Source of the DNA: Candidatus Aenigmatarchaeota archaeon
GTDB taxonomy: Archaea > Aenigmatarchaeota > Aenigmatarchaeia > GW2011-AR5
Direction of reading: 5' to 3'
NCBI GenBank assembly: GCA_016187335.1
Contig: JACPJW010000001.1
Location: 256,001 to 320,000, forward strand
DNA: 64,000 bases
The notes below the pieces were generated by a model. That model had not been told where the DNA came from. It did not search any database and saw nothing but the letters and a program-made list of their open reading frames with translations. The translations under genes were made by a program, and so were the position numbers. This document shows, piece by piece, positions 1 to 43,638 of this stretch. Every line of letters starts with the position of its first letter. Within the stretch, counting starts at the first letter, position 1.

Positions 1-491
1 CCTTCCAGGATGTCTTTTTCCCTGACGGCAATCTTGGAGCTGCCTTTGACAACATAGCATACGCCAAAGTGAACCTTGCCCACGTCGTTGCTGTCGTCGT
101 TGATAAAGCCAAGGGGTTTCGGGCTGAAGCGGCCGCGATAGCGGACCTCTTCAAAGAATTCCCGTTCCAGGGCCTTGCCAATTATTTCAGAAATTTTGCC
201 GTCCTCTTCCCTTATATGCCCGCCGACGCCGATGCTGTACAAATTGTGCAGCCTTGCTTCGCCGCTGTTTTTCAGGCGCTGCATCATAAAAACCCTGGTT
301 CCGTGGATAAAAATAATGTAAGGTATTATCTGCTTCAGTGAAGGGTCTTCTTCTACTTCATCCCTGTTTTTGAAGAAAGCATGCCTTTTGATTTCCTCAA
401 GCAATTTTTCGTTCCCTTCGTAAGGAATAAACCCCTGGAAATCCTTCTTGAGCAGGAATTTCCTCGGGACGACCATTATTTTTTCTTGCAT
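1..491 (-). CDS. Predicted NUDIX-family phosphoesterase (COG4112-like), 3' end beyond the window edge
   Basis: Manual translation from ATG at 491: MQEKIMVVPRK...EEDPSLKQIIPY...EARLHNLYSIGVGGHI...REFFEEV...INDDSNDVGKVHFG. Not in the ORF track because it runs off the window. Confidence 0.8.
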   Translation of the reverse strand, partial: MQEKIMVVPRKFLLKKDFQGFIPYEGNEKLLEEIKRHAFFKNRDEVEEDPSLKQIIPYIIFIHGTRVFMMQRLKNSGEARLHNLYSIGVGGHIREEDGKISEIIGKALEREFFEEVRYRGRFSPKPLGFINDDSNDVGKVHFGVCYVVKGSSKIAVREKDILE

Positions 492-493
492 AT

Positions 494-575
494 TTTTCCG
501 CCAGCGCTTTATCTCATAATATTTTTCTTTCCGTGCACGCTTTTTTTGATGAAACTTTTTTCTAAAAAGTTTCAA
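494..575. repeat. Intergenic composite copy of the hairpin repeat family (TTTTCCGCCAGCGCTTT plus ATAATATTTT...CCGT..ACGCTTTT plus AAACTTTT/AAAAGTTT hairpin)
   Basis: Shares motifs with 632-677, 765-806, 3501-3547, 3595-3611, 4747-4796 and 43374-43419. Confidence 0.75.
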
Positions 576-821
576 TGGGTCGGGGCGGATTCGAACCGCC
601 GGCTTATGCCTCTCATACCCTTGTGACAGTATTTTCCGCCAGCGCTTTTTTGATCAAACTTTTTCTAAAAGTTTGAAAGGGCTGTAAGGGCATCGTCATC
701 TGTGGTTCGTAGTCTGCGAACCAAGATCTCAAAGACCTACGGTCTTTGCAGATAACCAATTTCTGAACTTTCTTTTGATAGAACTTTTCTTTCTAAGAAA
801 AGTTCTCTAGACCACCGACCC
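576..821 (-). tRNA. tRNA-Val(TAC) with three introns (759-806 at 15/16; about 698-751 near 21/22; 612-682 at 37/38)
   Basis: Removing the three introns gives a complete cloverleaf, GGGTCGGTGGTCTAGTGGTTATGACGATGCCCTTACAAGGCATAAGCCGGCGGTTCGAATCCGCCCCGACCCA. Anticodon at 686-684. Relaxed bulge-helix-bulge motifs can be drawn at the 15/16 and 37/38 junctions. Confidence 0.9.
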
Positions 822-823
822 AG

Positions 824-1267
824 TCATAAACGCATCGCTAATTTTATTTCTTGCGCTTTTTCTATCCATAAAGGTATGCTACCAAACGAGAACTTTTTAT
901 TATAGGTATTATCCGAATCCGATGAAACCGGCAAAACCCATTCGAATTTGACATTCTCGTCGCTCAATTTAATAGATGACATTTCGGTAGTAGCTAAATA
1001 AATGACACCTATCCTTATTTTCTTATCCCAAAATTTTGCGATATCGACATAAACAGGATAAATTTCATCTGGAACTATTTTTGTTTCTTCTTCGACTTCA
1101 CGTAAGATCGCCTGTTCAAGCGTTTCACCTAGATGTACTTTCCCGCCCGGCAGGTCCTAGGTGCCGGATTTATGGCCATACTTCTTACCTGCCTGAAGCA
1201 GCAGTACCTTGTCATTCCTGAATATCACGATTTTCTGAAACACGCCGTCTGGGATGAATTCAGCCAT
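824..1267 (-). pseudogene. NUDIX hydrolase pseudogene
   Basis: MAEFIPDGVFQKIVIF...SGT*DLPGGKVHLGETLEQAILREVEEET. In-frame TAG (1157-1159) where Trp is expected just before the Nudix box, plus an apparent +1 frameshift in an A-run near 1020. Confidence 0.75.
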
Positions 1268-1269
1268 GC

Positions 1270-1830
1270 TTATTCCTCGTGAAGGTATTTGTCAAGCGGA
1301 TGGTGCTCTTTTTCATAGTATTTCAGTGCTTCCTCTATAATCGAGATGTCCTTGGCTTTGGCGCCGCTGGAGAAAAATTCAACAATGAAAGATGCCGCCT
1401 CGTCCGCGTCCGCGGCGACCTTGTCGCATGTTAGTTTGACAAAGGGATGAATCCAGTCTCTGAATACCTTGCCCATGATTTTCTTTTCATGCCTGTTGAA
1501 GCGTCCTCCTTTAGGCGCTATGCCTATCAGAGGCTTCTTGAAATGCTTTGCTATAAGCATTTCCTGCGAGGCTCCGATGCCAATGTCGTCTGCAAGGTTT
1601 ACAATTACTATGTCTGCGGATTTTATCATGAACGCATCCCTGCCCACAACGAACCGCTCGTTATTGTCGTCAAAATAAGAACCGTCGTGGTATTTCGAAG
1701 GGTCTAGATTGATTATTTCGAAGCCCGTCTTCTCCGTGAGCTTTTTGCATAAGCTGTCACGCCAGTCATGCGCACCTTCTTCCGGCTCTGTTATGCTTCC
1801 TGCGACGTAAATCTTTATTTTTCTTGTCAT
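1270..1830 (-). CDS. Nucleoside 2-deoxyribosyltransferase (Ndt/RCL)-like protein
   Basis: KIYVAGS...D...SADIVIVN...GASQEMLIA...KPLIG pattern. Start placed at MTRKIK (1830), overlapping the upstream NUDIX stop. Confidence 0.65.
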   Translation of the reverse strand: MTRKIKIYVAGSITEPEEGAHDWRDSLCKKLTEKTGFEIINLDPSKYHDGSYFDDNNERFVVGRDAFMIKSADIVIVNLADDIGIGASQEMLIAKHFKKPLIGIAPKGGRFNRHEKKIMGKVFRDWIHPFVKLTCDKVAADADEAASFIVEFFSSGAKAKDISIIEEALKYYEKEHHPLDKYLHEE

Positions 1831-2285
1831 AATTCCCTTACCTCGTGTTTTAGCAGCTTTTTCGCGTCCTTGTCGAAATAAAAGCGCCCGTGGAATTTCC
1901 TGCCGCTGAGCATCAGCGGCATCCAGACGGCGTCGTCCGGCCACATGTCCTTGTACGGCACTTTGCTTACTGGAAACCATTTGGGCGCGGCTTCCTTTGT
2001 TTCCTTTTCAATGCCGTCGTAGTCATCGGCAACAAAAACATGGACATGCCAGTTTACGACATCATACTGCCCGAAGAAAAACTCCAGTTCGCCTGCTTTT
2101 CTGGGGTTGTCCGGGACTATGCCTGTTTCTTCCAAAACCTCGCGCGACGCCGCTTCCGCTATATCCTCGTTCATCCCTACCTTGCCGCCGGGGCCGTTCC
2201 ATTTGCCGGCGCCGAAGCCGCGCTTCTTCTGTATCAGCAGCACCTTGCCGGCCTTGATGACGTAGCATAACGTAGCAGTTGTCAT
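1827..2285 (-). CDS. NUDIX hydrolase, MTH1/8-oxo-dGTPase-like
   Basis: KKRGFGAGKWNGPGGKV...AASREVLEETG Nudix box and the MWPDDAVW motif typical of the MTH1 subfamily. Confidence 0.85.
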   Translation of the reverse strand: MTTATLCYVIKAGKVLLIQKKRGFGAGKWNGPGGKVGMNEDIAEAASREVLEETGIVPDNPRKAGELEFFFGQYDVVNWHVHVFVADDYDGIEKETKEAAPKWFPVSKVPYKDMWPDDAVWMPLMLSGRKFHGRFYFDKDAKKLLKHEVREL

Positions 2286-2289
2286 AGCA

Positions 2290-2616
2290 TCACTCCGGTC
2301 TTTTATGGAATCCTCCATCATCAAGCCTGCGATTCACTTTCTCGTATTTTTCCAACAGGATTTTTTCCGGGTCAGCGCCCAGCTCGGAAAGCAGCAGAAA
2401 GCCGAAGGTTATCACGTCGGCTGCTTCTTCCGCAAGGTCTTTGAAAAACTCTTCCTTGCTTATGGGGTCCCCTCTCTTCAGCTTTTTGACATTGTTGAGC
2501 ACCTCGCCCGCTTCCCCGCCCATTGCTATGGAGTAAAATTCCCAGTTGAACGCCTTGTTCTTGTCGTGCTTCCTGTCCCTTTCGTGAGCAATCCTTGCGA
2601 ACTCGTTTATGTGCAT
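2290..2616 (-). CDS. MazG-like nucleotide pyrophosphohydrolase
   Basis: GEAGEVLNNVKK...LAEEAADV MazG EXXE/EXXD pattern. Confidence 0.75.
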   Translation of the reverse strand: MHINEFARIAHERDRKHDKNKAFNWEFYSIAMGGEAGEVLNNVKKLKRGDPISKEEFFKDLAEEAADVITFGFLLLSELGADPEKILLEKYEKVNRRLDDGGFHKRPE

Positions 2617-2617
2617 A

Positions 2618-3466
2618 TCAGACCACACTCCCAAGCCATTTTAGCACCGCTGCGCTTAATTCCTTTTCCCTGCCTTCAAAGCTGTGGTTGGCGCCTTTGA
2701 TTATTTCCCATGCAAATTTTCCGGACCTGGTCTTGCCGGCAAGTATTTCCATATAAGTTTTAACGGGCTTTACTGCGTACTCTTCCTTTGAGCCGAAGAC
2801 GGCAAGCATCGGTATCTTGATTTTGGAAAATATTTTCAGGCCGGAGTCGTAATTGAACAGCTGTGCTTCCGTGTTTTCAGGGTCTGCAAAACTCAGGAAC
2901 CGCTTGGGTGCGAAGCCCCAGAATTCTTTCAAAAGAACTTCTTTACCAGTCATCTTTTTTGCCTTTTTTACAATCTTATCGAAACCCTTTCCTGCCTGCT
3001 TTCTTGCTATGTTGTAATCATCGGCAGGCGCAAGAAGAACCAGTGCCTTCACATTCTTGTCCTTGGTTTTGTATTGATAGAAAGTTATCTTCTGGCATCC
3101 CGTGCTGTGCCCCATTAAGATGATATTTTCATATCCAAGATCTTGCACAGCCTTGACCGAGCCCTTTATGTCGTGTATGCAGTCTTCAAACCTTTCCTTT
3201 GCCGTGCCGAAATACAGGCTTTTTTTGCTGCCTTTTTTGTCAAAACGAAAAACTACTCCCAGTCCCCGGTTACTGGGTAGAAAAAGGTCAAAATTATTTT
3301 TCTTTATTTCATTTACCATGTCTTCGGTTATTGACCATGCAAAGAAACTGTCTGTCATCCCGAATACGTTTATGATTACATTCTTCGTTTTCCTGCCTGA
3401 TTTGAACAGCAAACCCGACAATGCAAGACCGTCCGACGCGTAAAACTTCACGAGTTCTGCTTTCAT
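2618..3466 (-). CDS. Alpha/beta hydrolase (DUF1749-like)
   Basis: GHSTGCQK nucleophile elbow and GANHSF His motif. Start moved to MKAELV (3466) because the longer ORF overlaps tRNA-Ser. Confidence 0.8.
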   Translation of the reverse strand: MKAELVKFYASDGLALSGLLFKSGRKTKNVIINVFGMTDSFFAWSITEDMVNEIKKNNFDLFLPSNRGLGVVFRFDKKGSKKSLYFGTAKERFEDCIHDIKGSVKAVQDLGYENIILMGHSTGCQKITFYQYKTKDKNVKALVLLAPADDYNIARKQAGKGFDKIVKKAKKMTGKEVLLKEFWGFAPKRFLSFADPENTEAQLFNYDSGLKIFSKIKIPMLAVFGSKEEYAVKPVKTYMEILAGKTRSGKFAWEIIKGANHSFEGREKELSAAVLKWLGSVV

Positions 3467-3469
3467 GAG

Positions 3470-3670
3470 CGCTGGGAGAGGGAATTTCCCGACCCTTTCC
3501 ATAATATTTTCTTTTCCGTCGACGCTTTTCTTTCCAAAAGAAAAGGGTCGCTTTGAACCCTCGCGGGCTTTCGCCCACAGGATGTTTACAAGCCTTTCCG
3601 CCAGCGCTTTTCACGTTAGCAAAAAGGGCTGTAGCAATCCTGCGCCGTAACCAGGCTTGGCTATCCCAGC
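3470..3670 (-). tRNA. tRNA-Ser(GCT) with two introns (3584-3631 at 37/38; 3484-3551 at 59/60 in the T-loop)
   Basis: Spliced sequence GCTGGGATAGCCAAGCCTGGTTACGGCGCAGGATTGCTAATCCTGTGGGCGAAAGCCCGCGAGGGTTCAAATCCCTCTCCCAGCG has the acceptor stem, long variable arm and G73. Anticodon at 3635-3633. BHB-like junctions. Confidence 0.9.
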
Positions 3671-4086: not shown

Positions 4087-4217
4087 GTTTTTTCTTTGAC
4101 CTGATTTATCTATGCGTATCGCAGGTTACGTCCAGATCTGCGTAGGTTCCCCCCAGTCTGGGATTTTGCGCTAAAATCATGCTATCTTTTAATACGTTAA
4201 CCAACAAAATATGCACG

Positions 4218-4745
4218 ATGACTAGTTTTCTTCTTTACGGCCGGGGCGGGCAGGGAGTTGAAACGGCTGTGCGGATTCTGGGCAATGCCCTGCATTCTTC
4301 TGGCATGAATGTCCAGGACTTCGTTCTTTCCGGCATGGAGAGGCGCGGCTTCCCTGTGGAAGGTTACGTGAAATCCGAGAAAGTCCCTATAATTTCAAAG
4401 GACGTCGCGAGCCCTGATTTTCTTCTTGTCTTTGATACCACGCTGCCTCTGGACAACATGCTGAAGCAGTGCAACGAAAAGGCTGCTGTAATTTTCAACT
4501 CAAAGGACCATGTAAAGAATCCGCTGCTGAGAAAGCTGCCGGTAAAAACCTATTTTGTGAATGCCAGCGAAATATCCTACAACTACATGAGGGCAATAAT
4601 GCCCAACACCGCCATGCTGGGCGCGCTGGCGAAGATAAACCCGAAAATAACCTCGAAGAGCCTGAAAAACGCGATGCAGCTGCCCATGCAGCAGGAGAAC
4701 TTGAAAGCCTTTGACGAAGGCTACAGGAACCTGAAAAGGAACTAG
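4218..4745 (+). CDS. Pyruvate/2-oxoacid:ferredoxin oxidoreductase gamma subunit
   Basis: YGRGGQGV, ERRGFPV and NTAMLGA motifs. Confidence 0.85.
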   Translation: MTSFLLYGRGGQGVETAVRILGNALHSSGMNVQDFVLSGMERRGFPVEGYVKSEKVPIISKDVASPDFLLVFDTTLPLDNMLKQCNEKAAVIFNSKDHVKNPLLRKLPVKTYFVNASEISYNYMRAIMPNTAMLGALAKINPKITSKSLKNAMQLPMQQENLKAFDEGYRNLKRN

Positions 4746-4746
4746 T

Positions 4747-4796
4747 GAACTTTTCAGAAAAGTTCAATCAAAACGGTAGAACTTCTCAGAGTTCTA
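4747..4796. repeat. Intergenic double-hairpin copy of the repeat family
   Basis: GAACTTTTC-A-GAAAAGTTC-AATCAAAA matches tRNA-Val intron 1 (GAACTTTTC...GAAAAGTTC-TATCAAAA). Followed by a second palindrome, TAGAACT-TCTCAG-AGTTCTA. Confidence 0.7.
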
Positions 4797-4829
4797 TCGT
4801 GCTCGGAATGGACAGGATGCGTGCTTGAT

Positions 4830-5105
4830 ATGAAAAGTGAAAATGAGATGAAGTACGACGAGAAGAAGCTGCCGGTAGGCGAGGGCATGGAAAAACCCAG
4901 TGTCGCTGAATGGCGGCAGTTCACGCCCAAAATTGACCTTAAGACGTGCACGAAGGATTACAGCTGCGTTGTTTTCTGCCCGCACAACGCCATCAGCATC
5001 AGGAAAGACGGGTTCCCTGAAATAGATTACGACAGGTGCACAGGCTGCCTGATATGCCTGAGGGAATGCCCCGTTTCTGCGATTTCTGAGGAGAAGAATT
5101 TGTAA
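4830..5105 (+). CDS. 2-oxoacid:ferredoxin oxidoreductase delta (ferredoxin) subunit
   Basis: WRQFTPKIDLKTC, CTKDYSCVVFCP and CTGCLICLRECP. Start uncertain (4821, 4830 or 4848). Confidence 0.85.
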   Translation: MKSENEMKYDEKKLPVGEGMEKPSVAEWRQFTPKIDLKTCTKDYSCVVFCPHNAISIRKDGFPEIDYDRCTGCLICLRECPVSAISEEKNL

Positions 5106-43373: not shown

Positions 43374-43419
43374 ATAATATTTTCTTTTCCGTAGAGGCTT
43401 TTCTTTTCAAAAGAAAGGG
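43374..43419. repeat. Intergenic near-copy of the tRNA-Ser T-loop intron core
   Basis: ATAATATTTTCTTTTCCGTAGAGGCTTTTCTTTTCAAAAGAAAGGG versus 3501-3547: three substitutions and one indel. Confidence 0.85.
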
Positions 43420-43422
43420 CTC

Positions 43423-43638
43423 TTAGAACATGAACCTCTTCTGCTTCTTCTTGGACATTTTTATGGTAAGCATATTCTTGTCAAGAAACGCGTCAAGCTT
43501 TTTGTGGTCTATTGTTTCCGGCAGCGTTATGCGCATTATTACCTCGTCGTTGTTCTCTTCCACGTCCACGGGCAGGTCAATAAAATGCCTGAAGTCCTTT
43601 TCCCAGTAGAATATATACTCGTTTTTTTTCCTTGGCAT
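43423..43638 (-). CDS. Short Hsp20/alpha-crystallin-like protein
   Basis: LPVDVEENNDEVIMRITLP...LDAFLDKNMLTIKM; appears internally shortened. Confidence 0.55.
   Translation of the reverse strand: MPRKKNEYIFYWEKDFRHFIDLPVDVEENNDEVIMRITLPETIDHKKLDAFLDKNMLTIKMSKKKQKRFMF

Follow-up and report, generated by a model that had tools for sequence, protein, structure and literature searches.

How introns arrive in archaeal tRNA genes is an open question. The closest precedent is found in the Thermoproteales, whose tRNA genes carry transposed introns of the bulge-helix-bulge (BHB) type (Fujishima et al. 2010, cited through PMC4090602 and preprint 10.64898/2026.10.13.758758). The review cited supposes intron gain to take place at the DNA level, by a mechanism that is not known, and only likeness and transposition from intron to intron are described. 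The introns reported below are similar to them, as near-identical introns with BHB junctions are located in several tRNA genes and positions of one genome. They differ in that copies are also found after stop codons, in an operon spacer, in ORFs and in rRNA genes, in being formed of two nested hairpin units (A and B), one of which is kept across archaeal phyla, and in their DPANN host. The literature searched contains no paper which links archaeal tRNA introns to a genome-wide repeat, in agreement with the preliminary description of this DNA, whose author knew of none.

Among other mobile or repeated sequences, the REP, BIME and REPIN elements of bacteria are short, high-copy palindromes with a conserved stem and a variable loop, located at the 3′ ends of genes on the transcribed strand, in tandem arrays and with presence/absence differences between relatives. 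To our knowledge, REPs are not found as tRNA or rRNA introns. The element described here resembles them in consisting of many short extragenic palindromes at gene 3′ ends, but no RAYT/Y1 transposase gene was found with it and a conserved tail, ATCAAAA, follows the hairpin.

The Rickettsia palindromic elements are bacterial palindromes which insert in frame into protein-coding genes and have no link to splicing. A comparable case in the present genome is an A-like hairpin with the tail GACCAAAA (C2:18592-18608), which lies in frame within a 414-aa ORF and adds 21 nt relative to the congeneric genome G001; its sequence differs from theirs. Archaeal LAGLIDADG introns of rRNA genes are of the BHB type, mobile, autonomous and site-specific. 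Such introns are present in the 16S and 23S genes of this genome, and the A and B modules differ from them in that they encode nothing and occupy >100 different sites. Finally, the intrastrand triplex repeats of bacteria are short and abundant, have three segments which could fold on one strand, are associated with rearranged loci and have formed triplexes in vitro (Holder et al. 2015, PMC4666352). In comparison, the repeats studied here show only a mirror symmetry of arm and tail, which is also explained by alternative Watson-Crick pairing.

In this archaeon, the bodies of introns trace back to a definite repeat family, which is also present outside the RNA genes and turns over between two congeners. 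This offers a concrete donor pool, a defined conserved core and natural filled and empty sites, that is, a rare concrete lead on the origin and spread of archaeal tRNA introns, from a tiny groundwater member of the Aenigmatarchaeota (DPANN). The analysis distinguishes a genus-level unit from one which many archaeal phyla have in common, and it covers the covariation of the foot triplets, a bacterial control and a genome-wide congener comparison.

The family comprises short (about 30–70 nt), strand-specific, structured repeats, of which the genome has about 150 copies; they make up the bodies of most introns in its tRNA and rRNA genes. Unit A is a 9-bp hairpin, xyAACTTTT-loop-AAAAGTTy′x′, followed by ATCAAAA. 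Unit B has the form n3n2n1-CCCTTT-(variable hairpin or unit A)-AAAGCG-n1′n2′n3′-n1-CGGAAA; its foot is formed by pairing of n3n2n1-CCCTTT with AAAG-C-G-n1′n2′n3′, with one C·C mismatch, and n1-CGGAAA comes afterwards. The loop of unit B is variable and often contains a whole unit A. In intronic copies, an added segment, AAAGGG-n1′n2′n3′, closes the structure perfectly. The preliminary description recognized a single module; its hairpin-ATCAAAA repeat stands, and the GCGCTGGCGGAAAA part has to be reassigned to the foot of another hairpin unit, of far greater age and conserved across archaeal phyla.

The window, that is, the whole 64-kb stretch of DNA analyzed, contains two tRNA genes and three extragenic loci which bear on the family:

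576 to 821, minus strand: tRNA-Val(TAC) gene with three introns (exons 821-807, 758-752, 697-683 and 611-576)
759 to 806, minus strand: tRNA-Val intron 1, 48 nt, D-loop, a unit A (hairpin 804-782, tail ATCAAAA 779-773)
698 to 751, minus strand: tRNA-Val intron 2, 54 nt, two other hairpins, neither an A nor a B unit
612 to 682, minus strand: tRNA-Val intron 3, 71 nt, position 37/38, a unit A nested in the loop of a unit B
3470 to 3670, minus strand: tRNA-Ser(GCT) gene with two introns (exons 3670-3632, 3583-3552 and 3483-3470)
3584 to 3631, minus strand: tRNA-Ser intron A, 48 nt, position 37/38, a unit B (CAG-CCCTTT, variable hairpin, AAAGCG-CTG-G-CGGAAA; core 3609-3595)
3484 to 3551, minus strand: tRNA-Ser intron B, 68 nt, T-loop position 59/60, a unit B (core 3527-3513)
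494 to 575, minus strand: 3′ trailer of tRNA-Val, a unit A (hairpin 571-553 and ATCAAAA), then two B-type cores (542-528 and 509-495)
4746 to 4828, plus strand: copy in the porG-porD spacer, a unit A hairpin (4748-4764), ATCAAAA (4767-4773) and a second hairpin (4777-4796)
43374 to 43425, minus strand: extragenic unit B, right after the stop codon TAA (43425-43423), with convergent genes on both sides (core 43400-43386, one mismatch)

Standard tRNA finders are silent on the raw window, where neither ARAGORN nor Rfam reports a tRNA, because introns interrupt both genes; over the whole window no Rfam family matches at gathering score. After splicing in silico, ARAGORN identifies a tRNA-Val(tac) of 73 nt and a tRNA-Ser(gct) of 85 nt. 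The unspliced tRNA-Val precursor folds far better than its shuffles (z = −6.7).

In tRNA-Val intron 1, a third arm, GAAAGTTC, at 772-765 is able to pair with the 5′ arm of the hairpin. Intron 3 of the same gene is composed of CAG-CCCTTT (681-676), the A hairpin (673-657), ATCAAAA (654-648) and the core AAGCGCTGGCGGAAA (647-633), with AAGGG closing the structure. The tRNA-Ser intron B reads CGA-CCCTTTTCTTTT/GGAAAGAAAAG-CG-TCG-A-CGGAAAAG ... AAAGGGTCG, a design shared with T-loop introns in at least ten further tRNA genes. The extragenic unit B at 43374-43425 reads GAG-CCCTTTCTTTT/GAAAAGAAAAG-CC-TCT-A-CGGAAAAG. The repeat array of the tRNA-Val trailer stops at the start of the next gene, and the por copy is flanked by porG (4179-4745) and porD (4821-5105). 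When extragenic copies are folded with RNAfold, z values of −2.8 and 0.0 are obtained, with A/U-rich alternative folds.

All seven copies listed in the preliminary description are present where it placed them, and its count of four introns out of five with the family is right, tRNA-Val intron 2 being the one without. It also took 494-575, 4747-4796 and 43374-43419 for free intergenic copies. The positions are correct, but the first is the tRNA-Val 3′ trailer and the second lies between cistrons of the por operon.

Both units are found far above chance. There are about 110 copies of unit A in 1.01 Mb, against about one for a control pattern, and the strict A hairpin occurs 100 times genome-wide against once for the pattern read backwards. 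Within the window, AACTTTT-N(2-10)-AAAAGTT is matched at 553-571, 657-673, 782-804 and 4748-4764, four matches against 0.02 expected from dinucleotide shuffles. Unit B has about 48 copies in the genome, and its core, AAAGCG-N4-CGGAAA, has 53 against 2.35 expected. The shorter AAGCG-N4-CGGAAA is exact in the window at 495-509, 528-542, 633-647, 3513-3527 and 3595-3609 and has one mismatch at 43386-43400. With up to one mismatch allowed, the window contains 10 matches to this shorter core against 2.9 expected.

The feet of both units covary. Around the invariant AACTTTT/AAAAGTT core of unit A, the two foot positions are complementary in 92 of 98 oriented copies, through 10 different dinucleotide pairs. 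The loop of this unit is C-rich and strand-biased (CAA 15, CAG 15 and CCA 9 vs. CTG 1; CCG is also common, and the complements of these triplets hardly occur). In unit B, the three bases before CCCTTT are complementary to the first three N of the core in 70 of 77 copies, with at least 12 different triplets, compared with shuffles which average 12.6 and reach at most 23. Furthermore, the purine arm and the tail of unit B are mirror images for about 5 nt past the conserved AAAG/GAAA. Agreement at mirror position 1 is seen in 59 of 74 copies vs. 35.8 in shuffles, a control which ignores the kinship between copies. This symmetry is only suggestive and would fit an alternative pairing and a “triplex clip” alike. 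The interpretation of TGATGA-like strings as a C/D-box or k-turn was dropped, as these are found only in the subset with a GA/TC foot.

Genome-wide, the tRNA genes were counted with an ad hoc finder, so that the numbers are approximate, and a stricter finder of T-loop introns was used after a loose one gave mostly false matches. On this basis there are 43 tRNA-like genes, only 2 of which have an intron-less length, with spans reaching 342 nt. Under the strict motif, 29 of the 43 contain unit A or B, located in the D-, anticodon or T-loop, and single genes contain up to three such introns (e.g., C2:821242-821516 and C2:236556-236856). Copies inside tRNA genes are in sense in all cases of unit B and in 19 of 21 cases of unit A. 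Three of the T-loop introns are nearly identical. Copies of A and B are also present in the 16S and 23S rRNA genes, all in sense.

Outside the RNA genes, most copies are again in sense and directly 3′ of stop codons or of tRNA and 16S ends. In the spacers of tandem genes, 35 copies are in sense vs. 10 in antisense; for 15 of the 35, the distance from the stop codon to the start of the copy does not exceed about 6 nt. Several B copies draw some of their foot bases from the stop codon (TAG-ACCC, TAG-GCCC and TGA-CCC). Only about 10% of the genes have a copy. Orientation tracks gene direction and not GC skew, and a replication-linked orientation of the IS200 type was rejected. Identical 28-mers are shared by intron copies and copies outside RNA genes; one of them, CAAACTTTTAGAAAAAGTTTGATCAAAA, is found in tRNA-Val intron 3 and at five other sites. 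This bears out the central proposal of the preliminary description, that one repeat family occupies extragenic DNA as well as tRNA introns. A minimal unit B, CGACCCTTTTGGAAAAAGCGTCGACGGAAAAC, is located at C2:578094-578108, near the 3′ end of a 497-aa ORF, the C-terminus of which we take to resemble prolyl-tRNA synthetase.

When read by hand, the T-loop introns show a strict 3-4-3 BHB, with the T stem, a TTCG/CGAA central helix, 3-nt bulges AAT/TAT and a GCACCC/GGGTGC helix; the inner helix is formed by the ends of unit B. The motif of tRNA-Val intron 3, also read by hand, is relaxed, with one U·U in the central helix. The genome search identified both EndA (97 bits, within a 202-aa ORF) and RtcB (528 bits).

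The rtcB gene itself is broken by a 29-nt insert (C2:766424-766452, minus strand), which is neither A nor B. Its removal in silico gives a single frame through the conserved MPDGHSGYGFPIGGV motif, so the mRNA of the RNA ligase would itself require splicing.

The rRNA genes are also expanded. The 16S gene (C2:239678-242953) spans 3276 nt vs. 1478 nt in the model, and the 23S gene (C2:208275-214038) spans 5764 nt vs. 2987 nt. Their inserts comprise many mini-inserts of 47–64 nt, A/B units and larger inserts; the latter contain three ORFs which match LAGLIDADG_3 above the cut-off.

The genome was compared with that of a congener, G001 (504 kb, fetched almost whole, 56% complete and fragmented), whose coding DNA is 72–79% identical. 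For 45 of the 128 element loci, both flanks were found in G001. At 37 of these 45 the congener has no element and at 8 it has some element. This accords with the view that the family behaves as insertional DNA, although presence and absence in two species cannot separate insertion from deletion. In the window, the copy at 4748-4828 is a clean indel: about 80 nt are missing in G001, where about 7 nt separate the stop codon from the next ATG and the sequence reads TAGTGAGAGCATG.

The comparison of orthologous tRNA genes, which the preliminary description had recommended, shows introns that are gained, lost or swapped. The G001 tRNA-Val, identical in mature sequence but for one base, has no intron 1. 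At the site of intron 2, the 54 nt found here are replaced by an unrelated intron of 18 nt. The first 51 nt of intron 3 are identical in the two species, between flanking genes which share only 72–79% identity. A different B-type module occupies the place of the tRNA-Val trailer array. At the site of tRNA-Ser intron A, there is a unit B in this genome and a unit A intron in G001. The two tRNA genes are 4 nt apart in G001, where a 2.6-kb block (window 830-3460) situated here between them is absent. This block contains genes for a nucleoside deoxyribosyltransferase-like protein, a NUDIX protein, an ORF without assigned function and a DUF1749 alpha/beta hydrolase; no integrase is seen in it.

The two units have different distributions. 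The hairpin of unit A reaches high copy numbers in this genus alone, with 100 and 26 copies vs. 0–8 in 24 other genera (controls 0–8). The B core is found in 57 of 121 genomes of the phylum, in a patchy way, with up to 47 copies; members of a single genus range from 0 to 32. Public genomes, about 600 billion bases, were scanned with CCCTTT-N(4-30)-AAAGCG-N4-CGGAAA, using the complementary foot as an internal control; roughly 470 chance matches are expected by our own arithmetic. The foot is complementary in 58 of 62 matches from archaeal records and in 1 of 27 from bacterial records. Since the two sets differ so in their feet, unit B is, by this sequence criterion, genuine in Aenigmatarchaeota, Nanoarchaeota, Woesearchaeota, Micrarchaeota, Iainarchaeota, Undinarchaeota, Altiarchaeum, ANME-1, Bathyarchaeia, Hadesarchaea, Methanocellales and Thermococcaceae.

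Such conservation of the B core across archaeal phyla is unusual for a simple selfish repeat. Together with the 51-nt identity in tRNA-Val intron 3, it points to selection on the sequence and not only to recent copying. This selection could serve the propagation of the element or a function of the host.

On balance, we lean towards a non-autonomous insertional element which persists in stable-RNA genes as a BHB intron, its splicing being predicted. An insertion into a stable-RNA gene would survive only if its ends and the flanking exon fold into a BHB. EndA and RtcB, both encoded by the genome, would then remove the insert from the RNA. Other insertions would survive where the harm is small, namely after stop codons, between cistrons or in frame.

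The element cannot be assigned to the REP/MITE-like class proposed in the preliminary description. In the 91%-complete genome, the search for a Y1 transposase gave only a Y1_Tnp fragment (16.7 bits, below the 23-bit cut-off) and no TnpB, so that the genome shows neither the TnpA nor the TnpB of IS200/IS605. The features of a MITE are also missing, with no transposase found and no clear target-site duplication at the two empty sites inspected (an ambiguous TGA at window 4748, none at C2:892627). The element works like REPs, MITEs or IS200-derived repeats, but its membership in these families fails on the enzymes.

The alternative which survives best is that of a functional cis-acting RNA module. 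Here the conserved core (CCCTTT / AAAGCG...CGGAAA) would provide a fold or a site for binding, for instance a purine-motif “triplex clip” or a protein platform, with copies produced by duplication and gene conversion; it would serve the register of exons, the protection of 3′ ends or the timing of processing. We regard this as unlikely, though it has real points in its favor. The core is kept over many archaeal phyla with compensatory changes, intron 3 of tRNA-Val retains its 51 identical nucleotides between two diverged species, and strand specificity is strict, with placement at RNA 3′ ends. The agreement of purine arm and tail at mirror position 1 also fits, but the signal is only suggestive, as its shuffles do not consider the relatedness of the copies. 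Against a host function, the module is unevenly distributed (0 to 47 copies), even among members of one genus, and most orthologous sites of the congener are without it. Moreover, its tRNA positions vary by gene and orthologous introns swap the type of unit, so no host RNA depends on the module.

In a second alternative, the module is the active part of a mobile element which has no need of an own enzyme. BHB introns excised by EndA and circularized by RtcB would re-enter any transcript able to pair with their foot, or else, in single-stranded nucleic acid, the fold would serve as a triplex “clip”; the outcome would then be fixed in the DNA. If true, it would explain the sense orientation, the complementarity of the foot to flanking nucleotides, even those of stop codons, the occurrence in tRNA, rRNA, mRNA ends and ORFs, and the fact that the core is conserved across archaeal phyla. 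We consider it improbable. The related suggestion of the preliminary description, that excised introns reseed the chromosome, found no backing, since no reverse transcriptase was found in the 91%-complete genome.

According to a third alternative, the modules are the retained structured ends of deletion derivatives of mobile rRNA introns encoding LAGLIDADG homing endonucleases, and gene conversion or the homing enzymes would have disseminated them. The large 16S and 23S inserts with their three LAGLIDADG_3 ORFs would be the parents, and rRNA inserts do contain B units, one of which precedes such an ORF by about 220 nt. However, homing endonucleases cut one long specific site, which leaves >100 different sites unexplained, and unit A is absent from most of the relatives expected to share such introns. 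Extragenic copies as ends of large introns were rejected, as their long-range partner sequences are not above the control (6 downstream vs. 7 upstream). There is thus little to recommend this origin.

The weakest alternative, ordinary intergenic punctuation (a terminator hairpin and a promoter) which entered the “introns” through tRNA pieces transcribed separately, now or formerly, draws on the copies after stop codons and tRNA/16S ends, on the T runs in the 5′ arms and on some B tails finishing in the A/T-rich GAAAATATTA, but is hardly credible given that the trailers of most tRNA genes consist of plain T runs and lack the element, that so few genes have a copy and that the exons follow each other in order and can be spliced in silico at junctions of the BHB type. 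An intrinsic terminator was rejected because the hairpin is followed by the A run of ATCAAAA, not by a T run, and because the copy at window 4748 lies inside one operon, from porG to porD. The B core was likewise rejected as a promoter: genes have a T-then-A-rich signal at −29 to −22, with TATA boxes of the TTTAAAA type unlike the B core, and tRNA genes have TTTAAAA/TTTATAA boxes upstream. The preliminary description had named terminators with mere homopolymer likeness as what would overturn its proposal, and the conserved core, the covarying stem, the strand-specific loop and the por operon copy speak against them.

DNA contigs of four groundwater runs from the source site are interrupted at the repeats, and some join repeat copies; none of them bridges an empty site. 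In the source metagenome, the summed contig depth of the repeat-bearing bins (window 401-800, 3401-3600 and 4601-4800) amounts to 3–9 times the depth of the flanks, with contigs ending inside the repeats.

A second hairpin family, AACTTTG-CTGCTCC-AAAGTT with ATCAAAAGAG, is represented by about 10 copies, located in tRNA introns as well as after genes, at sites which include C2:606852, 606899, 123212, 892627 and 455420. In addition, a hairpin GACCTTCTCAGAGGTC or AGAACTTCTCAGAGTTCT is regularly located 3′ of ATCAAAACGG (window 4777-4796; C2:81063, 350735, 716295 and 815417), so that the family comprises more than two modules. Two or three units A form tandem arrays with periods of 27–30 nt at C2:419562-419640, 803329-803372 and 76478-76523 and at C1:15075-15123. 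In an Altiarchaeum MAG (L132:4889-5070), three units B follow each other head to tail with a 23-nt spacer, ATGGTGCAGAAACGGCTGGACAT, at a period of 71 nt.
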